NCBI GenBank assembly: GCA_963664015.2
Contig: CAXXLF010000002.1
Coordinates: 1,536,001-1,600,000 of the forward strand
DNA from: Candidatus Binatia bacterium
Lineage (GTDB): Bacteria > Desulfobacterota > Binatia > UBA9968 > CAXXLF01
Direction of reading: 5' to 3'
DNA length: 64,000 nt
Under the pieces are notes generated by a model. The model was given only the letters and a program-made list of their open reading frames with translations. It was not told the origin of the DNA and did no database searches. The translations under genes and the position numbers were made by a program. This document shows, in pieces, positions 1,765-61,623 of this stretch. The stretch's first letter is position 1. Every line of letters starts with the position of its first letter.

Positions 1765-2814
1765 ATGGCAATTATCGATGCTGACGCTCACGTCATTGAG
1801 ACTGACCGCACCTGGGAACATTTCGACGAAGCCGACCTAAAATACAAACCCTTCAGAGTAACAGAGCCCAACGATCCCACCAAAGAATACTGGGTCATAG
1901 ACGGCAAGATCCGCGACCGGCGCGGGAATACCGGAAAAGATACCTCTCGCGCGTCACAGGAGATGCTGGACATCCCGGCTCGACTTCGCGATATGGACAA
2001 ATACGGCACGGATATTCAAGTGCTGTACCCGTCACTCTGGACGAGTCTGACTTTCAGCAGCCCCCAAATGGAGCGGGCCATTTGCAAAAGCTACAACCGC
2101 TGGATGGCCGATGTCTGGCGCGAGGGCCAGGGCCGATTACGCTGGATTGCGGTGTTGCCCGCTATGAGTATCGACCATGCGATCGACGAAATGGGCTTTG
2201 TCAAGGAAAACGGTGCCTGTGGAGTCACTATGCGCGGGTTTGAAGGAGAGTACCATGCAACGGACCCGCATTTCTTCCCCTTGTACCAGGAGGCGAGTAA
2301 TTTAAATCTTCCCATATGCTTCCATGCTGGTATCGGCAACGCGGAAATAGACGAATTCTTGACTCGGGCGGCTGGCGGGGGCAACTTCCTCCGATTCAAG
2401 TGGCCGGTGTTGGGTGCCTTTCATTCACTGATTATCGGTCGCGTCCCGAGCAAATTTCCCGACCTTCGCTGGGGCTTCATCGAGGTTAGCAGTCAGTGGC
2501 TGCCCTACGTGATCGGTGACATCGCTCGCCGCCTCGCCTGGCGCCAGAGCCGGTACGACGACGACCGGCCGACGGGCGATCTGCTGAAAGAAAACCGGTT
2601 CTACGTCGCTTGCCAAACCAACGACGACATCCCCTATGTATTGCAGTACGCAGGTGGTGAGGACAACTTGGTCATCGGCACCGACTATGGACACGCGGAT
2701 ACCACTAGCGAGCTGACGGCCATCAGGAGGTTCAAGGAAAACTCCAGTTTGCCCCCGGTAATCGTTCAGAAGATCGTCGACGTCAATGCTCGGGCTCTCT
2801 ACGGTCTCGATTAG
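1765..2814 (+). CDS. Amidohydrolase family protein (Amidohydro_2)
   Basis: IDADAH metal motif, YNRW, PICFH, GTDYGH; GGAGG RBS before ATG 1765. Confidence 0.9.
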   Translation: MAIIDADAHVIETDRTWEHFDEADLKYKPFRVTEPNDPTKEYWVIDGKIRDRRGNTGKDTSRASQEMLDIPARLRDMDKYGTDIQVLYPSLWTSLTFSSPQMERAICKSYNRWMADVWREGQGRLRWIAVLPAMSIDHAIDEMGFVKENGACGVTMRGFEGEYHATDPHFFPLYQEASNLNLPICFHAGIGNAEIDEFLTRAAGGGNFLRFKWPVLGAFHSLIIGRVPSKFPDLRWGFIEVSSQWLPYVIGDIARRLAWRQSRYDDDRPTGDLLKENRFYVACQTNDDIPYVLQYAGGEDNLVIGTDYGHADTTSELTAIRRFKENSSLPPVIVQKIVDVNARALYGLD

Positions 2815-2974
2815 ACGATGTGTTTCGAAGATAGCTCCTTAACGGGGGAATCGTGGTAATGAACGTTCGATTAGTCTACGGACGGGGTAGGTCAGACATC
2901 AGGAACCGCCGGTCATCGACCACCGGGAATCCCCGTCGCAACGCTTGGCAAGAGCTGAGCGGATAGGAGGAACG

Positions 2975-4191
2975 ATGAAAAGGCAAACAAAGGTAATTTT
3001 CCTGATGGCCGCAATCGCGATACTGGTTGCGGTCTACGGCGGAACAGGGAACCTGGCCCCGCAGACGGCACGATCCCAGACATCTGCACCGGAGTCGTTT
3101 AAGGCCGAATGGACGAAGCTCATCAAGGCCGCATAGACGGAAGGAAAGATGCTCCATGTCCTGGGTGGCTCTGCAAGCAGGCAGTACCGCCCCATTATCA
3201 ATGCGTTCGACCAAAAAGTTTGGGATTAAGTCGATTGTGTCCACTGGCTCTGGAACCGACCAGGTAAACCGGCTTCTGGCGGAGAACGGCGCCGGTATTT
3301 ATGTCGCAGACGTGATCCAGATCGGCGACTCGGGAGCCCTGCGGCTAGTACCAGCCGGGGGACTTGCCCCACTGCGTCCACTTTTGATTCACCCTGATGT
3401 CCTCAACGGAAGAAACTGGTTTGGGGGCCAGCTGTTTTTCGCTGATTCGGCTACTAACCAATAAGTACTAAACCACGGCGCCTATGCTTCTCCGTTCACT
3501 CTCGCTATGCGTTACAACACCAATGTCGTGAGTCAGGCAGATATCGACGCTATAAATTCTGTGTATGACTACCTGGATCCCAAGTGGAAGGGCAAGCTGG
3601 TAGCCCTCACCCCGATCAGCGAGCAGGTGGCGGGTTACTACAGTCACATGGCTCACCCCAGACGTAGGCGAAGAGTGGGTTAGCCAGTGGTTCAACCCGG
3701 CACACGGAATGACCTTTACCGATAACTGCAAGCTCATTGTGGACGGGATGGCGAAGGGGAACTTCGCTTTCGGGGTCTCCATAGGCTCTTGCGGGCGGGA
3801 TCTGGACAGATTGATCCGACAAGGCGTGCCCGCCAAGCGGCTGTACAAACCGTTCAAGAAAGCCCCGGCGCTGTCCGGCGGTGCCGCTGGAAACAACATC
3901 CAATGCGCCAAGAACGCGCCTCACCCCAACGCCGCAAAGCTCTTTATCAATTGGTTCCTGAGCAAAGAAGGTCAGACCCTCAGCCACACGATTTCCAAGG
4001 ATAATCCGGACCCCAACTCTGCGAGAGGACGTTCCGTGTACCGGGAAGGTCGACCCGAACGAATGCCGCAAGCCCGGAGTAAAGCATCTCTACTTGACGG
4101 CCGATCCCCAGTTCGCGTCACACAAAAACGAATACATGGCAAAGGCACGGCGCATCTTTCGCATGCTCCAGAAACGTTGAGCAGGCCCTAG
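2975..4191 (+). pseudogene. Extracellular solute-binding protein (Fe/polyamine ABC-type), disrupted
   Basis: Signal peptide, then TAG at 3134-3136, a frameshift near 3212, TAA at 3462-3464 and further shifts. Retains LDPKWKGK and APHPNAAKLFINWFLSKEGQ seen in the intact paralogs. Confidence 0.85.
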
Positions 4192-25531: not shown

Positions 25532-27037
25532 ATGGAAGAACATTATGATGTCATCATTGTCGGGGGCGGCTCGGCGGGTTGTGTGGCGGCTACGCGGCTA
25601 TCGGAGGACCCGAAACTAAAAGTGCTTTTGTTGGAAGCTGGGCCCGATCCACGGCCCCTTCCCGAGATCGTAGCGAAGGGAACTCGGGCGGTTCAGGCCC
25701 TTCTCCAGAGCCCCTACCTGAACATGTATCCCGCGCGCAGAAACCTGGACGGCAGCCCGATGCATTTCTTGTCAGGGAGAATCCTGGGAGGAGGCTCCTC
25801 GGTCAATATGATGTCGGCCACGCGTCCTATCGAGGCCGACTTCGTCAGATGGGCTCGACAAGGAAATCCCAGTTGGTCCTGGGAGAAAGTCCTGCCGGTG
25901 CTCCGCCGGCTCGAAGCGGACCAGGACTATCCCGATAGCCCGCTTCATGGCAAAGACGGGCCTATCACCGTGGAGCGCCAGTTCAAATTTGGAGAGTCCA
26001 TTTCCGGTCCGTACAAGGCATTGATCGAGGCGGCCTCCGAATTGGGATTGCCACTTTGCCCGGACCAAAACATTCCTAACCCCTACGGAATCTGCCCGCC
26101 TGCCCTCAATATTAAAGAAGGACTGCGCCAATCGACATCCGTTGCATACCTGGAGCCGGCCCGCTCCCGACCCAACCTGACAATTGTCTCCAACGCCTTG
26201 GCGGTGGGCTTAGAACTCGCAGGGACCAAAGTTCAAGGGGTTCGCTACGAGAGGGATGGAGCCACACACAGGGTATCGGGGAATCAGGTCGGATTGACGG
26301 CAGGTGCTCTGCACAGCCCGCAAATCCTAATGCTTTCCGGGATTGGATCACCAGATGAGCTAGAACGTCACGGCATCCGTATCGTGCTCCCACTCCCGGG
26401 CGTGGGGAAAAACTATCAGGACCATGCAGGAATCTCCATGTCCTACGAGGCGGTTCAAGAGCATATGAAACCCGAAAAGCATCATGGCTTACGGCTCTTT
26501 TTCAAGAGCCGCCCGGAACGGGACCATTTGGACTTTCACCTCATTATGCGTGAACCCACCGTGATTCCCGGCCTCAAAACCTTGCTTGCTTTCACTGCCT
26601 TTCTTCTGGAGCAGCGTAGCCGAGGGTCCCTCACGCTGAAGAGCGCGGACCCTCATGAATTACCGAACATTGATTCGCAGATGCTGACAGACCCACAGGA
26701 CATCGAGGCCGCGACAACAGTCATGAAGTTTATTCACAAGCTCGTCCGGACGGGACCCATGAAGGAGTTTTTTGGTCCGGTCGTTAGCCCCACAGAAGAA
26801 GAGGATTGGGCCCGATTCGCCCGCTCCACCTATACGACTTATCAGCATGCCTCCGGGACGTGCAAAATGGGTCCTGCGTCGGACCCCCTGGCGGTGGTCA
26901 ATGAAAAACTCCAGGCCCACGGCATAGAAAACCTATGGATTGCTGACGCCTCCATCATGCCTACGGTGCCCCATGCGAACACAAACCTGACGACCATTAT
27001 GATCGCCGAGCGACTGTGCGATTTTATGCAAGCTTGA
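25532..27037 (+). CDS. GMC family oxidoreductase (choline dehydrogenase-like)
   Basis: GGGSAG, LLEAG, GRILGGGSSVN, LMLSGIG, HASGTCKMG, DASIMP...NTN. Confidence 0.9.
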   Translation: MEEHYDVIIVGGGSAGCVAATRLSEDPKLKVLLLEAGPDPRPLPEIVAKGTRAVQALLQSPYLNMYPARRNLDGSPMHFLSGRILGGGSSVNMMSATRPIEADFVRWARQGNPSWSWEKVLPVLRRLEADQDYPDSPLHGKDGPITVERQFKFGESISGPYKALIEAASELGLPLCPDQNIPNPYGICPPALNIKEGLRQSTSVAYLEPARSRPNLTIVSNALAVGLELAGTKVQGVRYERDGATHRVSGNQVGLTAGALHSPQILMLSGIGSPDELERHGIRIVLPLPGVGKNYQDHAGISMSYEAVQEHMKPEKHHGLRLFFKSRPERDHLDFHLIMREPTVIPGLKTLLAFTAFLLEQRSRGSLTLKSADPHELPNIDSQMLTDPQDIEAATTVMKFIHKLVRTGPMKEFFGPVVSPTEEEDWARFARSTYTTYQHASGTCKMGPASDPLAVVNEKLQAHGIENLWIADASIMPTVPHANTNLTTIMIAERLCDFMQA

Positions 27038-27366
27038 GCGTCAGCGGCCGGGTCTATGACAATGCAAGTAAAAAGGGCTTGGGAAAAGAGCTGCCGAAAG
27101 AGATGTTTTTGCAGGACATTCCCACATAAACTTGAGCACTGGGGTCGGTCATACCTTTTTCCGAACGAGAACGGGTTTGCTAATTTGGAGTAGGCGTAAC
27201 ATTCGGACTGACGTCTAGTAGCCTGAATTTACATGACCTGACAGATAGAAAACCGGCTCGACCGTTCTCCTATCTATTAGCTAAACATCGAAGTACGAAT
27301 ACCCAGTAACCGTTGACAGAGCGTAATGCAGAGGCAAGACAATCTCCCCAAACACTCGGAAGTTAG

Positions 27367-27717
27367 ATGTTCGAGATCTTGATAGCAGTAGGCATCTTTA
27401 CGGTGCTCGTCTTGGTTGCCGCCGGCGATCAGCTCTTGCATGGGCACGGGCTTTTAATCATCGGTACCGTCACGGCAGCTTTGGGACTTATCGTTGGTGT
27501 TTCTGTAGGGATCCGCTATCACCTAGCTCTTTACCGCACCCTTGAGCCCTTAGGAATACTGGAGCCTCGCTGGTGGTGACAACCCACGAGCTATAACGCT
27601 CATCTCCCCTCCGCAAACAGCCGCACGGTGATGACGTGGTTTTACGCAGGAGTGGCTAGCATGGTTGTGGTGTTGGTCGGTTGCGCTTTGATTCTCGCCG
27701 GCACCTTGATAATGTGA
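27367..27717 (+). pseudogene. Small membrane protein interrupted by in-frame TGA
   Basis: ...LEPRWW*QPTSYNAHLP...WFYAGVASMVVVLVGCALILAG; the frame continues past TGA 27577-27579 into another TM segment. Confidence 0.55.
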
Positions 27718-27874
27718 AACGTTCGAGCATGGCGCAAAGCGATAAGAGGGGGGGCAACAGGGAAGCTATCAGATCGTTACGACTGGTTGTCAGTTCTGAC
27801 TTCGATCCTCAGGGGATCAATGGACTTAAGGTCGCGGTGCAGGGGGTGTAGTTGTAGCGCAGGGTCGACAGTCT

Positions 27875-28322
27875 TCACGCTTTTTTCTTCATTTTGTTTG
27901 TTCCAGCGGAATAGACGAGGGACAGGTAGGAAGGTTTTTTGGTTTGGGAATCCCCATGGGGATTCAGGAGCCTTTCAATACGATCAATCAGCTGTTCGTA
28001 TGTAAACGGCTTGGCGAGAAAGTCGTTCGAGCCGCTTTGCCGGACTTTCTCTTTATCCTTGAAGGAAACCCTTGCAGTCACGGTCAGCATGGGGATGGAA
28101 ATAGTGCCCGGGTTATGACGAATCAAACGGGTGGCTTGAAGGCCGTCCATTTCGGGCATCAAGATGTCCATCAGAATAAGGTCCGGCTGATGGATTGCGG
28201 CCATATCCACTGCTTCCCTACCGTTCACCGCTACAATGGTTTCATAGGAAGCCTTAAGAATCTCCCGTAATATCATGAGGATATCCGGATTGTTCTCCAA
28301 TATAAAGGATTGTCTTCGCCAT
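27875..28322 (-). pseudogene. Single-domain response regulator, frameshifted near the 5' end
   Basis: ATG 28322 MAKTILYI then a +1 shift into ENNPD; NGREAV, PDLILMDILMPEMDG, LAKPF. Confidence 0.7.
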
Positions 28323-28467
28323 GGTCCTGCTTTTTTAGTGCAAAAGAGGTGCCAAGATTCAACAGTTGGAGACCGAATTCTTCCTAATTGACGAACGGGC
28401 ACAAAGCATTTTTATATCGCCCAGGGTGGTACGAACATCGTCGGTTTGTTTGTGGAGCGTTTTAAAT

Positions 28468-28682
28468 AGACAGCTGGCAGGGAGCGGCAATCCGGACTAC
28501 AGGACAACTGACAGAAGTAAAACAGCAGGCAGTAGCTAGGGAGAGACTCCGTGCCGGATACTGAGGACTGATCACTGAATACTGACGACCGAATAGTTAC
28601 GAGCCCGGAGCTGCCATCTGCCCAGTGCCCACTCCTCACGGTGCTCTGCTCTATGCGTTTTGCTTTCTGGTCTTGTGGTCCC
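28468..28682. repeat. Heptamer-mosaic block with reverse-complement modules
   Basis: GGACTACAGGACAACTGAC, CAGCAGGCAGTAG, ACTGAGGACTGATCACTGAATACTGA, TGCTCTGCTCTATGCG. Confidence 0.65.
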
Positions 28683-28684
28683 GC

Positions 28685-29469
28685 CTATCGGACGGGGACG
28701 AGTATGATTTCTATGCGTCTATTTTGGCTTCGTGTTTCCTCTGAATTGTTTGGGGCGATGGGTCGGTAATAACTGACCCCACTAGCGGTCATTTTTTCCG
28801 GCTGGATATTCCCTTTTTCCTGCAACAAACGCACCACAGCTGCTGATCTGGCAGTGGATAGCTCCCAGTTGGCCAGGAACCTTTCCGTCAATGAATACCG
28901 GATATCAAGATTATCCGTATGTCCTTCCACCACAATAGTCCTACTGGTATCCTCTTCAAAAGATTGCGCCAAGGTCAAAAGGACTTCCTGCCCCTGTCCT
29001 TAATCTTCGTGCTTCCCGAGTCGAATAGAATCTTATCCACAAACGTTACCCTTAGCTTGCCTTCTATCTCTTCGATTTTGACGTCCTTTTCGGCAATCTA
29101 GTCTTTTAGACTGCGCCCTATTTCTCTACGGGTTCGATCCAATTCGGATATCTTCATTTCTTTTTGCTGAACAACGGGTTGGGTTTGCGCCAAGGCAAGT
29201 TTCAACTCACCTATGGCATCCTCTTGTTGCCGGATAGCAGATTGCGCCTGGCTCAGGTTGCGCTTCAAACCTTCTATGGTGCCCGAGAGGCGTGCGTTTT
29301 CACTTTGGAGTTCATTGTGGCGTGTCTGGAGGTCCGATAGGGAATCGTTCTTTTCTTTCAACTGTGAGTTGGAATTCGTTTCCAGGTCCGTATACGTCCC
29401 TTTCGTTACGCACGATGAAAGGAAAAGACAAATGAGACACGAGGTATAAAACAACGATTTATGGAACAT
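28685..29469 (-). pseudogene. OmpA/MotB-family lipoprotein with in-frame TAG
   Basis: Lipobox-like LSSC, coiled coil, LKD*IAEKDV (TAG 29098-29100), ILFDSG, VEGHTDN, NWELSTARS, NRRIEI. Confidence 0.8.
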
Positions 29470-29664
29470 AGCTCTTTTCTCTTTAGAGAGCGAATTAAGA
29501 ATAGAACCTTGATTTTAAATTTCAGTCGCCAGGAACTGGAAAGTTTCGAAAACGGTCATCGATCGGTCGGGATTCGAACGGGCAAGTGGTTCATTTCGCC
29601 CTAGATTGGACCTGCGTATAGCTTACGCTTCGAAGATGTAGCATTTTAATTCGGGAAGAAGTCC

Positions 29665-30115
29665 CAATGCACAAGGGGACAGAGCGCCGTAGGCAGTAGG
29701 CCGCCAGTCAATAACAACGGATTACTAACGATAGGACTACGGACAGACAGAGATAGGGACAGAACTAGAAAAGATAAAGCCAACAGGATGGGGGCGACAG
29801 TAGAAGAGAGCCAGCAGAGGTCAACCTTTAGCTAAACAGCGTTGAGTGTTAAGTGGCGCCGTAAGAAGCGAGAGAGCGAGCCAACAACACTGCTTTCGGT
29901 CGGTTTGATTTTGTTGTGCGCCGTTTGTTATAGGATGGAGGCGGCTCGGGAAGGCTAAGCGTAGAGGCGAGAACGTAGTGAGGCAGCAGGCGGATGGTAG
30001 CAGGATTAGTGTTAAGTGTTGAGGGAAGAGAAAGCTGTCAGTCAACGGTCCGGAGATGAAGGCTGTGAGCTGAAAGCCGATAGCTAGTTGACTGATGACA
30101 GATTACCGGTCACCC
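29665..30115. repeat. Intergenic heptamer-mosaic repeat block
   Basis: GTAGGCAGTAGG; GACTACGGACAGACAGAGATAGGG (homologous to 4774-4802); GCTGAAAGCCGATAGC. Confidence 0.6.
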
Positions 30116-30176
30116 GTCTTCCTCCCCGGCCGCTTGACGGCGAGAGAACGAGATAAGAACAAGAAGGAGACATGTT

Positions 30177-31121
30177 ATGGCGAATTATGAACCTTTAGAA
30201 ATTCATGGATACTTCCGATCCCATACGCATCTGCCGGTTTGGTATATAGTCGAAGAGACCGGGATATGGGAGCAAATGGGCATCAAGGCGAGTTTTGATT
30301 ATTGTGACAGCTCATCCGAAGCCGAGGCGGCCCTGTTCGAGGGGAGAGTGGATTTTATCTCGGGAAACCACATCTCGCCATATGCCCTGGTCGCTCGCGG
30401 GAAACCGATTGTTTCCCTCGCCTCGCCCAGTAACAGTGTGAACGATAGACTCGTCACAAGGCAGCCTGTTGCGTCGGTTGCCGAGTTACGCGGCAAGAGC
30501 ATCGCCGACACGACGATCACAGACCCAGGGGGCGGATACAACCATATCCGCGGCAACCACATGCTCTACATCCTGCGCGGGGGTCTCAGCCTGGATGACG
30601 TCAAGTGGGTAGAGGTGGCAAATATTAATTCACAAGAAGCCCGAAAGGCCCAATTGCAGGCCATGATTGACAACAAAGCGGATGCCACGATGGTTACGGG
30701 AGGGACGGCGGAATTCGAAAAGGCCGGTTTTCATGTGCTGCCGCTCGGGCAACTCCCCATGGTCAATGGGCCCACGTTAACAACGACAATGGACAACCTC
30801 CAACGAAAGGACCGGCTAGGCGAACGGCTGGTGAAGGCGCTTGTACTAGGAATTCATTATGCCCGAACCCATAAGCCGGAGACAGAACAGATATTGGAAA
30901 AGCTAAAGAAGCAATATGCCGAAGCCGCATCGTTGAACTACAATAGCGTGGCGAAACTCCTGGCCAAACCCTACCCGGACATCCAAGCCATCGCCAATGC
31001 ATATGAGCTTTGCTGCATGAAAACCGACGATGCCAAGGAATTGAGCCCCCTGGCACTCTGGGATCTGCATTTCCTGCGTGATCTGGACAATTCGGGGTTT
31101 ATCGACGGATTATACAAGTAG
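30177..31121 (+). CDS. NMT1/THI5-like periplasmic-binding-fold protein, no signal peptide
   Basis: GIWEQMGIKASF, LFEGRVDFISGNH, ELRGKSI, LDNSGFIDGLY C-terminus; AAGGAG RBS. Confidence 0.7.
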   Translation: MANYEPLEIHGYFRSHTHLPVWYIVEETGIWEQMGIKASFDYCDSSSEAEAALFEGRVDFISGNHISPYALVARGKPIVSLASPSNSVNDRLVTRQPVASVAELRGKSIADTTITDPGGGYNHIRGNHMLYILRGGLSLDDVKWVEVANINSQEARKAQLQAMIDNKADATMVTGGTAEFEKAGFHVLPLGQLPMVNGPTLTTTMDNLQRKDRLGERLVKALVLGIHYARTHKPETEQILEKLKKQYAEAASLNYNSVAKLLAKPYPDIQAIANAYELCCMKTDDAKELSPLALWDLHFLRDLDNSGFIDGLYK

Positions 31122-31228: not shown

Positions 31229-32056
31229 ATGGGCATGCTTTTTACATCGCTTGTTCTAGCCGGACTGATGGTTGCTGCAATACCGACGCCAGCAGTGACA
31301 GCAAAGGTCCTATCCGTTGAAGAGATTCGGGCTACCCTGTCGGCATCACACCGGCGCGCCAAGGATCGAGCCAGGGATCGATACCGTCATCCCGCCGGAA
31401 CGCTCGCCTTCTTCGGCCTTGCCGACAATATGACGGTGGTCGAAGTTGCCCCCGGCCGTGGCTGGTATACGGACATCATCGCGCCCCTGCTTCTTGAACG
31501 GGGAAAGTTCTATGCCGCCGGCAATGCACTGGACGTGCCCGGCCAACGAGAATACCGCTACCCGCGCCAGCGGGCCTACAACAAGAAGATCGCGGAAAAT
31601 CCTCAAATATACGGTGCGGTCGAGGTCACCTCTTTAACGCCGCCCAATCATACCAGGATAGCCCCGCCGGGTAAGGCCGACCTGGTCCTTACCTTTCGCA
31701 ACGTGCATAACTGGCTTAAGGAGGATCCCCGGCTCTACTTTAAGGCCATGTATGACGCGCTCAAGCCGGGCGGTTTCCTGGGCGTGATTGAGCACCGCGC
31801 AAAACCCGGGACCTCTGTCGAAAAAATGATCGAATCCGGTTATATGACCGAGGCCAAGGTGATCGAGATCGCCGAGAGCGTAGGATTTAAATTGGCTGAG
31901 AAATCGGAAGTCAATGCCAACCCTAAAGACACCGCCGACCACCCAAAAGGTGTGTGGACGTTACCGCCGAGCCTACGCTTAAAAAAACAGGGTAGAAAAA
32001 AATATCTCGCCATCGGCGAAAGCGACCGCATGACGCTGAAGTTTCGAAAGCCGTAG
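31229..32056 (+). CDS. Exported class I SAM-dependent methyltransferase-like protein (COG4798 type)
   Basis: Signal peptide; RDRYRHP, VEVAPGRGWYT, LTFRNVHNW, LKPGG, GVWTLPP, IGESDRMTLKF. Confidence 0.85.
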   Translation: MGMLFTSLVLAGLMVAAIPTPAVTAKVLSVEEIRATLSASHRRAKDRARDRYRHPAGTLAFFGLADNMTVVEVAPGRGWYTDIIAPLLLERGKFYAAGNALDVPGQREYRYPRQRAYNKKIAENPQIYGAVEVTSLTPPNHTRIAPPGKADLVLTFRNVHNWLKEDPRLYFKAMYDALKPGGFLGVIEHRAKPGTSVEKMIESGYMTEAKVIEIAESVGFKLAEKSEVNANPKDTADHPKGVWTLPPSLRLKKQGRKKYLAIGESDRMTLKFRKP

Positions 32057-32115
32057 GGCAAGAGAAAGCCGGCAACTCTCAGTGATAAGTCAAAAAATAG
32101 AGGGAGGAGAAAAAT

Positions 32116-32815
32116 ATGATGCGGGTATAGTCTTCATTAGTATTTACTCTCTTCTTGCTTTTTCCACAGGGTGCTCGAAGCCAGGATAAGGGAGCAGCGG
32201 AAGCAAAGGCGTTTTTAAGGGAAAAACAATAACCTGGCAGATAGGTTCCACCCCGGGAGCTTCGACGGGTCTTCTGGCTCGGCTGGCAGCCCCATACTGG
32301 GCGAAGTATACCGGCGCCCGGATCATCGTTCAGAACCGCCCCGGGGGAGGCGGGATCGCAATTTTCAACTTCCTCAACAAACGTGGCAAACGGGACGGTC
32401 TGACCGCGGTTGGCATATTGCTTTCACACAGCTCCTTGGCAGGATCGTCGGTCGACCGGGGATACAATTTGACATAGAAAAGCTGTCCTGGGTGGGCGTG
32501 GTTCCCACTGTAGTCAATACCTTTGTTGCCAATAAGAAAAAAATCAAATCCCTGGACGAATTAAGGAACTCAGAGCGTCCCTTGCGCTGGGGGCTGACCC
32601 GACCAGGAGGTAACAGTCACTTCATGGGGGCCACGCTCGCGAAGGTCCTGGGACTCAAGGTTCAAATTGTTTCCGGGTACCCGGGAACGCCGGCGGTCCG
32701 CCAAGCCTTGCTGAGTGGGGAGATCGACGTCACCGCGTTTCCTCCGACTCTCTTCGCATCACAAATCAAGGAAGGACTAGTTATTCCCTTGATCCATATG
32801 GGGCAAATGCCTCAC
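32116..32815 (+). pseudogene. Tripartite tricarboxylate transporter substrate-binding protein (Bug/TctC), degraded and 3'-truncated
   Basis: FKGKTITWQIGSTPGASTGLLARL...IIVQNRPGGGG; GYPGTPAVRQALLSGEID; early stops and frameshifts. Confidence 0.7.
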
Positions 32816-33273
32816 CCCGGTAGAAAGATAACCCTAGGGGCGGTTTTCGACCACTTCCCCAACGATCTTGACTGTCTTTTGTAAATCCTTTTTCTCTTTG
32901 TTCCTATTTTTTATGTAGCTGTAGCGTGGATCCAAGTCTCCGTCCCGACTTCGTGTCCCTGGGCGACGATCTCCTTGAAAACATCGGGATAGTTCTGAAT
33001 CGTGATACCCGTAGGGGAAAAGGTTGTTTGAACGCCCTCCTTGTGGAATAGCTCCAGCATGCGAAAGACACCCACGCGCTCGCCGTATTCCCTGTCCGTA
33101 ATGGAGCCAAGATTTTTCTTGGTCACTGCGTTCTTGGGAAACACCCGGCGAGCTTCCTGCTGCAGCGATCCGCCTACCCCCAAATCCGCGGGCCAGGTCT
33201 CAAAGGCCACCCATGGCGTAATAGCGAGCCGTGCTCCGTTGGTCCAGAGAATGGGTTCCCTCTTTCTTTTCAT
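32812..33273 (-). pseudogene. Polysaccharide deacetylase/PuuE-like protein, frameshifted and truncated
   Basis: WTNGARLAI...EYGERVGVFRMLELF...GHEVG; continues in a shifted frame (KDLQKTVKIVGEVVENRP*GYLSTG) until it meets the TctC remnant. Confidence 0.7.
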
Positions 33274-33463
33274 AATTAGCCTCCCAATTTCGGAATTGGC
33301 CTTACTCACGCCTCAACCATTGAGGCTTGTCAAGTTGCTTCCCAGGTTCGGACTAAACCTAACCCACCGATATCCTATTGGAATGTTGGCAAATAAACTA
33401 AATTTATGGCTTGGAAAGGTGATTTGAACATTAAAATCGTAGAGCTAAGGAGGCATGGGTGCT

Positions 33464-33497
33464 GCAATTGACAAGCTCGCCCTACCGGGGTTAGAAT
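33464..33497 (+). promoter_or_regulatory. Sigma70-like promoter, repeated cassette copy 4
   Basis: GCAA-TTGACA(33468-33473)-18 nt-TAGAAT(33492-33497). Confidence 0.65.
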
Positions 33498-33557
33498 GCC
33501 GCCGGTCAACTAGTCACTTCAAAACTTAAACCAGCTCGTTAAAGGAGGATTCCAATC

Positions 33558-54183: not shown

Positions 54184-56268
54184 TCACTCCCAATTCAGTA
54201 ACGGCAGAAGGCTAGTGTATTCATCGGTCCAAAGCCGTACTTGGTCGTACTTCTCCGTATTTTCCGTCGCCGCCAGAAGCAGTGGCCCCGCGAGGACCTC
54301 CTCATCCCGTGCCAGGATCATCCAGTGGGCCCCCCAATTCTGATTGGGACCCATTTTAGAGTCAATTCTTATGGCTGCCAGGTCGAAATGGTCCGCCAGA
54401 CGCCTGATCACAGGCTCGAAATCGAGATGAAAGGTATCGATCAACAGGGCGAGCACCCCATCGGGCTTGAGATGGCGAAGGTAGGTCTCGAAGGCCTCTG
54501 CAGTCAACAGATGCACAGGAATAGCGTCGCCCGAGAAGGCATCGAGCAAGAGGATATCGAACTCCTGTGGCGGCTCCCGCTCTAAAGACAAACGGGCATC
54601 ACCCATAACGATCTCGATATCCGCCGGGGAGTCTTTTAGATAGGAAAAGTAGGACTCGGCCAGGCGCCGGATTTCCGGGTTGATTTCGTAGACCCTCACC
54701 GTATCCTCCGCGCCGGCGTAGGTAACGAGGGTACCCGCTCCCAACCCTACCAGACCGATGCGCCGCTGGCGCTGGGGGGAGAGGTATCGGAAGGCCAGTC
54801 CAGCCCCGCTCTCCTCGGTGTAATAACCTGTCGCCAGATGGCGCTTATCAGAAGCCGTGAACTGCGCCCCGTGGAGAACCCGGCCGTGGCGCAGGTGGAG
54901 TTGCTCCCCGGGTAAACCGGGGGAGAGCTTCAGAATGGTCAAGATACCGTAGAAGTTTCGGGTCTGGATGATTGCCGATCGGAGCGGTTCCCGGGCCTGA
55001 ACAATAAACAACGCTACGATGACCCCGTACGAGACAAGCAGGGGAATCGTCCCCCACGAAACGCCTCTTTGATGAAACCAGGAGCGTTTGTCTGCGTAAA
55101 GGGCAACAAAGCAGAGCGCCCCGGTGCCGAGCAAGCCGATATGGAGTTCGAAATAATCGACGAAAAGGAACGGCGCGACGAGCGTTACGAACACGCCGCC
55201 CAAGGCCCCTCCCAGTGCGATCATCAGGTAGTAACCGGTCAGGTATCTGGGATGGGGTTTCAGGCGGCTGAGTTCACCATGGCAAACCATACAGCAAACG
55301 AAAAGGACCAGGAGATAGGTTATCAGCTGGGATATGACGCTGGTGTGGTGCTGCCCCCAAACCATAACGAGGGCAGCCATCAAGGCCGGGAGAAGTACGG
55401 AGACAAAGACCCGGCGAGAATACCAGCGTTCCCCCTCGAAGCACAGGATGAAGGTCAAGAGATAAATGGACAAGGGCAATACCCAGAGGAACGGGACGAC
55501 GACCAGGTCCATGGTAATCTGGTTAGTGACCGCCAGGAGCAGCACCGCCGCACAGGCCGAGAGCAACAGCCAGAGAGCGACCGTCCCGGCGGACGGGCGT
55601 TGGAACACCTCATCCGGTGAATCGGGCCGCGCCTGCGCTGTCGATTCTGTCGCCCCGCGCCTCCAGATTCCCCAAGCACAGATGATGGATGCCAACGCAA
55701 AGACTGCAAAACCAATCCCCCAGAAATGCGCTTGGACGCTCCTGGAAAAAACCGGCTCGAAGACGAACGGATAGCTCAGTAGAGCAAGCAGGGAACCCGT
55801 ATTGGACAGAGCGTAGAGCCGGTAGGGAGAAACCCCTGGGTGTTCGCTGCTGAACCAGGCCTGCATCAGCGGCGTTGTTGAGGCAAGAACAAAGTAAGGA
55901 AGGCCGAGGGACACGCCGAGCAGTAATAGGATGTCCGACGTGGGCGTAGACGAAGAGAGCGGTTTCCAATCGCCGTCCGGTGTGATGGGTAGCTGGAGCA
56001 AGGCCGCCAACAGGATGGCGCCGTGCAGCGCTGCCTGCACGCGAGGCCCGAACTTGCGGACACTCAGATGAGCGTATCCGTAGCCCGCGAAAAGAAAGAC
56101 CTGAAAAAATAAAATGCAGGTCGGCCACACCGACGGCCCACCGCCAAACCAGGGTAAGACATACTTGGCGATCAGGGGTTGCACCTGAAAGAGAAGAAAC
56201 GCCGAGACAAAGATCGTTACGGCGTAAGGAAGGATGCCCGCCGTCGGGAGAAACGTGTACCGAGTCAT
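54184..56268 (-). CDS. Fused MFS-like/spermidine synthase-like SAM-dependent transferase
   Basis: SAFLLFQVQP, PYRLYALSN, CHGEL, RNFYG, HG.Q, GLGAG, YEINP, GDAR, DAFSGDAIPVHLLT. Confidence 0.85.
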   Translation of the reverse strand: MTRYTFLPTAGILPYAVTIFVSAFLLFQVQPLIAKYVLPWFGGGPSVWPTCILFFQVFLFAGYGYAHLSVRKFGPRVQAALHGAILLAALLQLPITPDGDWKPLSSSTPTSDILLLLGVSLGLPYFVLASTTPLMQAWFSSEHPGVSPYRLYALSNTGSLLALLSYPFVFEPVFSRSVQAHFWGIGFAVFALASIICAWGIWRRGATESTAQARPDSPDEVFQRPSAGTVALWLLLSACAAVLLLAVTNQITMDLVVVPFLWVLPLSIYLLTFILCFEGERWYSRRVFVSVLLPALMAALVMVWGQHHTSVISQLITYLLVLFVCCMVCHGELSRLKPHPRYLTGYYLMIALGGALGGVFVTLVAPFLFVDYFELHIGLLGTGALCFVALYADKRSWFHQRGVSWGTIPLLVSYGVIVALFIVQAREPLRSAIIQTRNFYGILTILKLSPGLPGEQLHLRHGRVLHGAQFTASDKRHLATGYYTEESGAGLAFRYLSPQRQRRIGLVGLGAGTLVTYAGAEDTVRVYEINPEIRRLAESYFSYLKDSPADIEIVMGDARLSLEREPPQEFDILLLDAFSGDAIPVHLLTAEAFETYLRHLKPDGVLALLIDTFHLDFEPVIRRLADHFDLAAIRIDSKMGPNQNWGAHWMILARDEEVLAGPLLLAATENTEKYDQVRLWTDEYTSLLPLLNWE

Positions 56269-59455: not shown

Positions 59456-60745
59456 TTAGGTGGGCGGCTGAACCAGTGCGGCGTTCTCTTCCCGCATACC
59501 GCGGCGCATGGGCGGAAGCAATGCAAATCCCGTACAGATCAATATCACCATACTCCCACCGATAAACGCTGCTCCAACGGGCCCAAATAAGGAAGCGAGG
59601 GCCCCCAGGTTTACCTGCCCGAGCTGGGGCCCGCCACCGGTGAACATGGAACTCAGCGCCGTGACCCGGCCGCGGAGATTATCTGGGGTTCTCAGTTGAA
59701 CGAATGTCGTCCGCATCACTTCGGATACGATGTTGCCAACACCGTATCCGGCCAGCATCAAGAACGCTACGGGAAGCGTCCTGGAAAAACCGAAACCAAT
59801 CAGGAATACCCCTTGAAGAGCATAGGTCGAGATCATGAGTGGGATCTTGTGGCGAACATCGCCCCTGCTTCCGAGCACCAACCCCCCGACCACCGCCCCC
59901 ACGGAACCGGCCGAGTGTAACAGGCCCAGCGCCTCGGGCCCAAGAAGGAGTATGTCCCGCACGAAAACGGGCAGCAAGACGCGATAGGTACGCATCAGGG
60001 TTACGACAAAGTCCAGGGACAGGGAAATCAGGACCATCGGATTGTCACGGACAAAGCGAAAGCCGCCGAGAACGGCGTCCCAGTTGCGTCCCTGTCCACG
60101 CTTGGGCGCTGGGATCACCGACATCATGATCAGCGCGAATATCACCGCCAGGAAGGTGGCGACGTCGATGGCATAGGCTGTCCCCAAACCAAACAACCCG
60201 ATGACCAACCCGCCGAGGCCGGGACCGATTATCGTCGCCGTCTGGCGCATGAGCGAGTGCAGAGTTAGGGCGTTGGCCAGCTCCGCGCGAGGAACGAGAT
60301 TGGGAAGAATCGACTGGCGCGCCGGGGCGTCAAAGGCCGTTGCCGCCCCGGAGATCACGGCGATGACATAGATGAACGCGGGAGTCACAACTCCCGTGAC
60401 GGTGGCAACAGTAAGCGCCACCGTCGTAGCCATCAATACGCTTTGCGTGGACAGGATCAACCGCTTGCGGCTGACTCGATCGGCCATTGCCCCGCCGACG
60501 AAAGATAGGAGCATAAAAGGGACCACGCGGGAGAGCCCCACAAGACCGACCTGGAGCGTCGAATCGGTCAGGATAAAGATGTGCCAGCCGATGGCCACGT
60601 TCTGCATCTGGTCGCCGATCGTCGAAACGAACTGACCCAACCAGAGCAAGCGAAAGTCCCGATGCCGGAGAGTGGTTAGGGCGTTGCGGCGGGGCGCTGG
60701 CTGATCCAGTGGCTCGCCATTGGACTGAGGTTTCTCGGGTTGCAT
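59456..60745 (-). CDS. MFS transporter
   Basis: LRHRDFRLLW, GAMADRVSRK, PARQSILP, LRGRV; same family as 36386..37687. Confidence 0.88.
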   Translation of the reverse strand: MQPEKPQSNGEPLDQPAPRRNALTTLRHRDFRLLWLGQFVSTIGDQMQNVAIGWHIFILTDSTLQVGLVGLSRVVPFMLLSFVGGAMADRVSRKRLILSTQSVLMATTVALTVATVTGVVTPAFIYVIAVISGAATAFDAPARQSILPNLVPRAELANALTLHSLMRQTATIIGPGLGGLVIGLFGLGTAYAIDVATFLAVIFALIMMSVIPAPKRGQGRNWDAVLGGFRFVRDNPMVLISLSLDFVVTLMRTYRVLLPVFVRDILLLGPEALGLLHSAGSVGAVVGGLVLGSRGDVRHKIPLMISTYALQGVFLIGFGFSRTLPVAFLMLAGYGVGNIVSEVMRTTFVQLRTPDNLRGRVTALSSMFTGGGPQLGQVNLGALASLFGPVGAAFIGGSMVILICTGFALLPPMRRGMREENAALVQPPT

Positions 60746-60879
60746 GACTGATGGAACAAGGCAGTAGCATCCCCTGGAACGGACTGAAAAGGAGCGGTGT
60801 CCGCTCAGAGTGGGAATCCAACACAGCCGGTGAGTCCGTCATCTCCGCCTCATGGGTACGCCACGGACTCCTCCGATAA

Positions 60880-61416
60880 CTATTCCCTTTTTCCTCCCTC
60901 CAGCCCACTCGTTGTCGAGAGGATCTTTTTCCCGTTGAGGGATATCTCGGTGGTTACGGGGATCGATTTATTCAATGTGTTTTCCACATAACAACGAGCG
61001 CTGGCATCACGAGCCAGGGCTTCGGCCTGATCCACCGGACAGTTGCCCTCCAGGTAGACTTGAAAAATCATATCCTGAAAGGACCTGGTCGCCCCCGAGT
61101 GGTGGGCCCTGGCGGTGACTTTCAATTGATCGATGGGGATATCTTTGGCAATTACCAAACTGGTATATTGCATGGTCAGTCAGCCAGCGGCCCCGGCCAC
61201 AAAGGTGCCCAGTGGCGTGGGGGCTCGATTGGTCCCTCCCCGCACCTCCGGTTCGTCCATCAAGATTTGGAACGACTTGTCATCCGTTTTGTAGACCGCT
61301 TCCAGGGTTTTTTGCTCCTGGTGTTGCACGTCGACCCGAACCGTCCCGATTCGGCCGCCGGGACGTTTGGGGCTCTCGCCTTTAACCTTTTTTACCAGTT
61401 CCGGGATAACACGCAT
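60880..61416 (-). CDS. OsmC/Ohr-family peroxiredoxin-like protein, probable selenoprotein (in-frame UGA)
   Basis: Two in-frame ORFs join as DEPEVRGGTNRAPTPLGTFVAGAAG*LTMQY...ARCYVENTL. The TGA at 61180-61182 sits at the first catalytic Cys position. Confidence 0.8.
61148..61171 (-). promoter_or_regulatory. Putative bacterial SECIS element
   Basis: GCAAU-(bulged A)-UACCA-GUU-UGGUA-AUUGC hairpin starting 9 nt after the UGA. Confidence 0.65.
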
Positions 61417-61594
61417 ATTTCCTAACTTCCTTTTCGGGGTATGAAGAAGACTCAGAGTTTCCCGGATACTCCCACAGGAGGGTCCGGGGCGTCAAGTCCA
61501 TTGGACGCCGCCACTGGGGAAACTCACGGATCCGAGATGTTTCGTGGGGTTGACCCACCTTGATTTCACGCTTATTCTTTTTGTTGGATCGGGG

Positions 61595-61623
61595 TTGACT
61601 AATGCCACCCGGGTGGCTAGTCT
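61595..61623 (+). promoter_or_regulatory. Sigma70-like promoter
   Basis: TTGACT-17 nt (contains palindrome GCCACCCGGGTGGC)-TAGTCT, upstream of the dienelactone hydrolase gene. Confidence 0.4.

Follow-up and report, generated by a model that had tools for sequence, protein, structure and literature searches.

A UGA-interrupted OsmC-type gene in a Candidatus Binatia genome is a probable selenoprotein gene

We find that a gene on the minus strand of a Candidatus Binatia genome (window positions 61416..60880), which standard translation breaks into two short reading frames, is very probably a single intact OsmC-type gene whose UGA codon 79 is decoded as selenocysteine (Sec). The window is the whole stretch of DNA that we analyzed, 64,000 nucleotides long (C2:1536001-1600000), and comes from a 3.5-Mb genome assembly of two contigs that is 97% complete. 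One gene spans both reading frames, UGA alternates with Cys codons among its homologs, selection acts on both of its halves, the hairpin that follows the UGA is constrained at the RNA level, and the machinery for Sec decoding is present in the genome.

Translation with table 11 yields two open reading frames (ORFs) on the minus strand, one of 78 amino acids (61416..61180), which terminates at the TGA at 61182..61180, and one of 97 amino acids (61173..60880). Both share one frame and are separated by TGA-CTG-ACC. When TGA is read as U, translation continues to give a protein of 178 residues that includes ...FVAGAAG-U-LTMQY... and ...ARCYVENTL.... The first-pass annotation of this DNA had described the two in-frame ORFs, the nucleotides between them and the 178-residue readthrough product, and every statement that it made about the sequence holds, with the gene on the minus strand. 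The Pfam OsmC domain (PF02566) matches the readthrough protein with 56.1 bits (gathering score 27.5) across residues 61-157 and profile positions 1-100 of 100, a span that includes the TGA. Because the domain runs across the TGA, the 78- and 97-residue ORFs are parts of one gene. The coordinates of this gene, of its flanking signals, and of related features elsewhere in the genome are listed in Table 1. Note that the terminator-like hairpin, which sits between the stop codon of the gene and the start of an MFS_3 transporter gene (60745), comes from a consensus scan that returned 4 terminator-like sites, against 1.7 expected from shuffles.

The UGA falls at a position of known importance to this family. 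In the profile of the gene's clade, the U79 and C142 columns match the two conserved Cys residues of the solved OsmC-family chains 3cje and 1vla, which agrees with the earlier proposal that the UGA occupies the first of the OsmC/Ohr Cys positions and that the second Cys is intact. The two residues are separated by 63 positions; a redox Cys pair about 60 positions apart is given as a hallmark of OsmC/Ohr proteins in the relevant text of Meireles et al. 2017 (PMC5384416). Cys142 is unchanged throughout the alignment of the clade, in which Arg59, part of the RGG motif, is likewise invariant.

Table 1. Coordinates of the OsmC-type gene and its associated features (window positions), and of related loci elsewhere in the genome (contig positions, C1 or C2).
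Feature	Position	Strand	Remarks
Predicted OsmC-related selenoprotein, whole CDS	60880..61416	-	178 codons plus TAG stop; ATG at 61416..61414
In-frame TGA, codon 79	61180..61182	-	First (peroxidatic-type) Cys column of the OsmC/Ohr pair
Cys142 TGT codon	60991..60993	-	Second (resolving-type) Cys; 63 residues past U79
SECIS-type hairpin	61148..61171	-	mRNA +12 to +35 from the U of UGA; ViennaRNA fold
Purine-rich, ribosome-binding-like stretch (GGAAGTTAGGAAA)	61418..61430	-	Directly 5' of the ATG; read from the sequence
Terminator-like G+C-rich hairpin, then T run	60792..60806	-	Consensus scan only; weak evidence
OsmC-Sec paralog L050	C2:687843-688226	-	TGA at the same column; NF041052, 115.2 bits
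OsmC-Sec paralog L051	C2:1336543-1336992	-	TGA at the same column; NF041052, 171 bits
OsmC-Sec paralog L052	C1:76071-76535	+	TGA at the same column; NF041052, 148.2 bits
tRNA-Sec	C2:1322535-1322625		74.2 bits, above curated cut-off; ARAGORN tRNA-SeC, anticodon TCA
selA	C2, from 1306534		606.4 bits, above curated cut-off
selB	C2, from 1309119		408.7 bits, positions 2-580 of 581, above curated cut-off
selD (L053)	C2:1311134-1312057	+	372.7 bits, above curated cut-off

Members of the gene's clade were drawn from scans of species genomes and metagenome contigs, and in these scans the clade was seen only in Candidatus Binatia-type genomes and on three metagenome contigs. Cys/UGA alternation among homologs had been named in advance as a check on the Sec reading, and we observe it at exactly the UGA column. 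Four distinct Sec forms (the window gene, L021, L047, and L048) carry TGA there, and five distinct homologs (L041-L045; 50-55% identical) carry Cys within ...GAA[ST]-C-LMMQY.... Among the Sec orthologs, L021 (the same place as L040) is 63% identical to the window protein, and L047, L048, and L049 share 70-76% identity with it in their C-terminal halves; TGA stands at the same codon in all of these. The CDS of L049 is identical to that of L048 and was dropped from the synonymous-site test and the tree described below. Also excluded from alignment-based analyses was L046, whose match ends at residue 105 with a break in the frame. One genome, G002, encodes both one Sec and one Cys form.

Both halves of the gene are under purifying selection. 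Between the window gene and L047, dN/dS was 0.091 before the TGA and 0.128 after it, and three other Sec-Sec pairs gave 0.076-0.149 after the TGA; synonymous sites in these comparisons are near saturation (dS of 1.2-2.2; in three pairs it could not be computed for the N-terminal half). Ratios of 0.076-0.149 past the TGA imply that the downstream part is translated and constrained. A few damaged copies were also seen. Locus L054 (G004:C7:1157800-1159100, match at about 733-996) is a copy of the Sec-type ortholog without everything 5' of about residue 87, and appears to be a decayed remnant of a Sec-type gene; the same genome also keeps an intact Cys form (L023/L044). The paralog-type gene L027 (G013:C9) has an in-frame TAG besides its Sec TGA, and the reading frame of the Cys-type homolog L046 is lost past about residue 105; gene breakage or faulty assembly may account for these two cases.

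Directly downstream of the UGA, the mRNA can form a hairpin of the kind expected of a bacterial SECIS element. Counted from the U of UGA, the ViennaRNA fold has a lower stem that pairs G12-U16 with A31-C35, a bulged A17 (61166), an upper stem that pairs U18-A22 with U26-A30, and an apical loop of G23, U24, and U25 (61160..61158), and it reproduces in full the structure drawn by the first-pass annotation. The hairpin begins 11 nt past the UGA and loop residue G23 begins 19 nt past it; the spacing rule used by bSECISearch is 16-37 nt. Taken alone, the hairpin is thermodynamically unremarkable, with an energy of -9.4 kcal/mol (z = -0.37) and with 57 of 200 shuffles folding equally well or better. 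An Rfam scan of 60700..61600 (E up to 10) found no SECIS family and left the hairpin unmatched; its four matches elsewhere in this interval were at chance level, all with E above 2.

The hairpin nevertheless stands above chance, because synonymous sites are kept in the Sec orthologs and because the structure cannot form in the Cys homologs. Across the four distinct Sec orthologs, all eight testable codons at +1 to +11 past the UGA were identical at the nucleotide level, compared with 13 of 88 elsewhere in the gene (one-sided Fisher test, p = 1.5e-6, a value that is overstated because the four sequences are related and represent about three lineages, L021 and L048 being 85% identical in DNA). 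The test counted codons with an invariant, degenerate amino acid, and its interval was preset by the hairpin in the first-pass annotation. When the predicted structure was threaded onto each sequence, it had an energy of -7.6 kcal/mol in the window gene, L047, L048, and L049, and of -4.5 kcal/mol in L021, which has lost one pair of the lower stem (C13/U34) and for which RNAfold favors a different fold. Threading onto the five Cys forms gave +5.1 to +6.0 kcal/mol. The hairpin is thus conserved, as the eight invariant codons show, and coupled to UGA, since it folds in Sec forms and in no Cys form. Its loop varies at the third position among Sec orthologs (U25 or G25), reading GUU or, in orthologs, GUG. 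We found no compensatory pair changes in the hairpin among the Sec orthologs compared, where pairs were simply invariant; support for the element comes from conservation and from its co-occurrence with UGA, not from covariation.

A search of the genome for Sec machinery, also named in advance as a check, recovered tRNA-Sec, selA, selB, and selD, all above curated cut-offs (Table 1), with the three protein genes clustered within about 6 kb. The selD gene has an in-frame TGA at codon 17 (...KAAGUAAKLG..., a GUAAK motif), and is itself a predicted selenoprotein gene. Two hairpins lie 3' of the selD TGA, the second of which has a GUU apical loop, as in the window gene. Among five close relatives searched, selB scored above cut-off in four, and the exception (G003) is an 81% complete genome. 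In G002, the relative that bears both a Sec and a Cys form, selB was above cut-off.

The same genome also encodes three OsmC-Sec paralogs (Table 1). The second Cys is intact in each, and each has a hairpin past its TGA whose apical loop opens with a G (position 23, 24, or 25). These hairpins are stronger than that of the window gene.

Other explanations of the in-frame TGA have to be weighed against these observations. The gene could be functional and yet have its UGA passed without Sec, by near-cognate insertion of Cys or Trp, or have it serve mainly as a stop with occasional readthrough. Sequence analysis cannot separate Sec insertion from other kinds of readthrough, and at position 17 the hairpin does not match the E. 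coli determinant. We consider this very improbable all the same, given a hairpin that goes with UGA and that no Cys form has, an apical-loop G and U in the fdhF register, and a genome that keeps selA, selB, selD, and tRNA-Sec and also uses UGA in selD. More improbable again is a pseudogene, that is, two dead fragments left after mutation of a TGY Cys codon to TGA. The same-codon TGA in four distinct orthologs from separate assemblies argues against decay, as do the dN/dS of 0.08-0.15 in the C-terminal half, the synonymous-site constraint in the hairpin that adjoins the TGA, the three paralogs with the same arrangement, and the complete Sec machinery. These outweigh the points in its favor, namely that Cys homologs exist, that one base change converts TGT or TGC to TGA, and that G004 holds a decayed Sec-type copy that lacks its 5' half.

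The reading to which we give least credence is that of two separate small genes of 78 and 97 amino acids, or of a TGA introduced by sequencing or assembly error. Table 11 does list two ORFs, and an ATG occurs 9 nt past the TGA. That ATG, however, encodes Met82, which is invariant also in the Cys forms, whose frame is continuous; furthermore, a single OsmC domain covers both ORFs, and independent assemblies carry the same TGA. One intact gene with a Sec codon therefore remains our preferred reading.

If codon 79 is decoded as Sec, the hairpin 11 nt past the UGA would present loop residues G23 and U24 to SelB carrying Sec-tRNA(Sec), and SelB would deliver Sec to the ribosome, so that translation continues instead of terminating. 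The genome's own tRNA-Sec, SelA, SelB, and SelD would provide for this decoding. In the protein, Sec79 would replace the peroxidatic Cys of the OsmC/Ohr pair, with Cys142 as its resolving partner. Sec79 would attack a hydroperoxide or similar oxidant and form a selenenylsulfide with Cys142, which would then be reduced by a thiol donor. We infer selenium insertion and SelB binding from the established bacterial Sec pathway, and the active-site roles, the substrate, and the reductant from the family. Hydroperoxide reduction via a Sec79-Cys142 selenenylsulfide would be the likeliest chemistry, and we make the peroxidase assignment with moderate confidence. Nine residues before its first Cys, 1vla has a Glu (PLELV), which we take to be the catalytic Glu. 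The aligned consensus residue in our query is Gly, so canonical Ohr/OsmC-type peroxidase chemistry is not assured.

The subfamily models for Ohr (TIGR03561; 20 bits versus a cut-off of 88.85) and OsmC (TIGR03562; 17.5 bits versus 85.8) both score far below their cut-offs on the window protein, which belongs with a poorly characterized third group of the OsmC/Ohr superfamily. Among NCBIfam models it scores highest with NF041052, 'OsmC-related (seleno)protein', which matches residues 25-162 at model positions 3-144 of 144 with 89.6 bits, below the 95-bit cut-off; a six-frame search of the genome scored the gene at 81 bits. Under the same model, the three paralogs all pass the cut-off (Table 1), whereas ortholog L021 scores 93.7 bits and Cys homologs 91.5 and 96.6 bits; the clade thus sits at the margin of this curated family. 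Among 121 genomes sampled across the phylum, 23 had a match to NF041052 (E up to 1e-10). Matches above cut-off were found in two of the 121, the gene's own genome and G076, and all of those matches carry TGA. The gene had earlier been described as hidden. This is correct for simple ORF calling, but less so for NCBIfam, which already holds NF041052 and narrowly missed it.

Sec appears to be widespread at this position in the lineage. When 41 related genomes were searched with the readthrough protein, 38 gave matches, at 84 places in all: 70 with at least one in-frame TGA, 13 with none, and 1 with a TAA. We fetched 20 of these loci and checked the catalytic column in them and in the three paralogs of the gene's own genome; TGA occupied it in 18 of the 20 fetched loci and Cys in 2. 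These counts hint that OsmC-related proteins of the lineage normally carry Sec. Many genomes in the search had two or more TGA-bearing OsmC places. In a tree of 12 rows, all Cys forms fell in one clade (support 93 of 100) nested among Sec forms. The tree was rooted by very long-branched paralogs (outgroup branches of 0.7-2.2 changes per column), with the basal forks left open, and the Sec-to-Cys direction that it indicates is suggestive, not robust.

A broader reading, tentative and somewhat more likely wrong than right, is that the gene represents a separate, uncatalogued OsmC-Sec clade, marked by ULTMQY, an A17-bulged SECIS with a GUN loop, and sub-cut-off NF041052 scores. Sec would then be the default and probably the ancestral state in the Binatia-type order, with up to four Sec paralogs per genome, and the Cys forms would be derived.

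Gene neighborhood was considered as a clue to function and set aside, as no consistent partner emerged from comparison with L047, L040, and L048. The window gene is flanked upstream by a divergent dienelactone hydrolase gene and downstream by the MFS_3 transporter gene on the same strand, an order common only to L047, its closest ortholog. The neighbors of L040 and L048 are DoxX, HAD hydrolase, and ARD. Elsewhere in the window, a 694-residue ORF (54184..56268, minus strand) gave no Pfam match (E up to 1e-5), and four stretches in the first half (2814-3616, 27037-27875, 28402-30177, and 32056-33519) have no ORF of at least 150 amino acids. These stretches may explain why the first-pass annotation placed the gene in a pseudogene-free half of the window.

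Pipelines that read UGA only as a stop would call this gene two fragments or a pseudogene, and its score just below the NF041052 cut-off makes a concrete case for widening that model. With this gene, an uncultured lineage, Candidatus Binatia, gains a well-supported selenoprotein; the lineage appears to invest heavily in Sec-containing OsmC-type proteins. Our literature searches on selenoproteins or selenocysteine in Binatia or Binatota found nothing relevant, and the term 'Binat' is absent from a 2026 review. The close sister Sec and Cys forms of G002 would also offer a clean natural pair in which to compare what Sec gains over Cys in the OsmC fold. The window gene leaves the understanding of Sec decoding and of OsmC proteins unchanged.

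How closely the hairpin resembles a paradigmatic SECIS can be judged from E. coli K-12 fdhF, for which we folded 48 nt from the codon-140 TGA beside the corresponding 48 nt of the window. Both have a hairpin directly 3' of the UGA, an apical loop that contains G23 and U24 under identical numbering, and a single bulged base on the 5' side near position 17. The bulged base is U17 in fdhF (U18 in the computed fold), whereas it is A17 in the window gene and in all Sec orthologs. The apical loops also differ, being GGUC (4 nt) in fdhF and GUU (3 nt; GUG in orthologs) in the window gene, and the window stems are A/U-rich and weaker (-8.4 versus -14.9 kcal/mol over 48 nt). U17, G23, and U24 are listed as conserved positions, with U17 and G23 as SelB contacts, in the review PMC8659212. 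The 'fdhF-like geometry' of the first-pass annotation thus stands for the G23/U24 register and the one-base 5' bulge at position 17, but not for the bulged base itself, which is A and not U.

At the protein level, the window protein has the PF02566 domain and the redox residue pair in common with the Ohr/OsmC thiol peroxidases. These have Cys at the first position of the pair, whereas Sec is predicted there in the window protein.

The nearest precedents are the OsmC-like selenoproteins from Sargasso Sea data, for which the family entry of Zhang, Fomenko and Gladyshev 2005 (PMC1088965) gives three sequences, the motif UxxT, and COG1765; such proteins are also tabulated in the reviews PMC9312934 and PMC13188914. 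OsmC-like selenoproteins are therefore both published and modeled in NCBIfam, and the window gene belongs to a known kind, to which it adds one more member. As described in that entry, the Sargasso Sea family is, like the window protein, of OsmC/COG1765 type; in it too, Sec stands in for the redox Cys, and a bacterial SECIS follows closely after the UGA. Its examples come from marine metagenomes, whereas our clade comes from Candidatus Binatia-type genomes and three metagenome contigs. The motifs differ as well: UxxT is given for the Sargasso Sea family, whereas the window protein and its orthologs have U-L-T-M (UxTM). One of the paralogs that the genome encodes, however, reads U-L-L-T, which is UxxT, as in the Sargasso Sea family.
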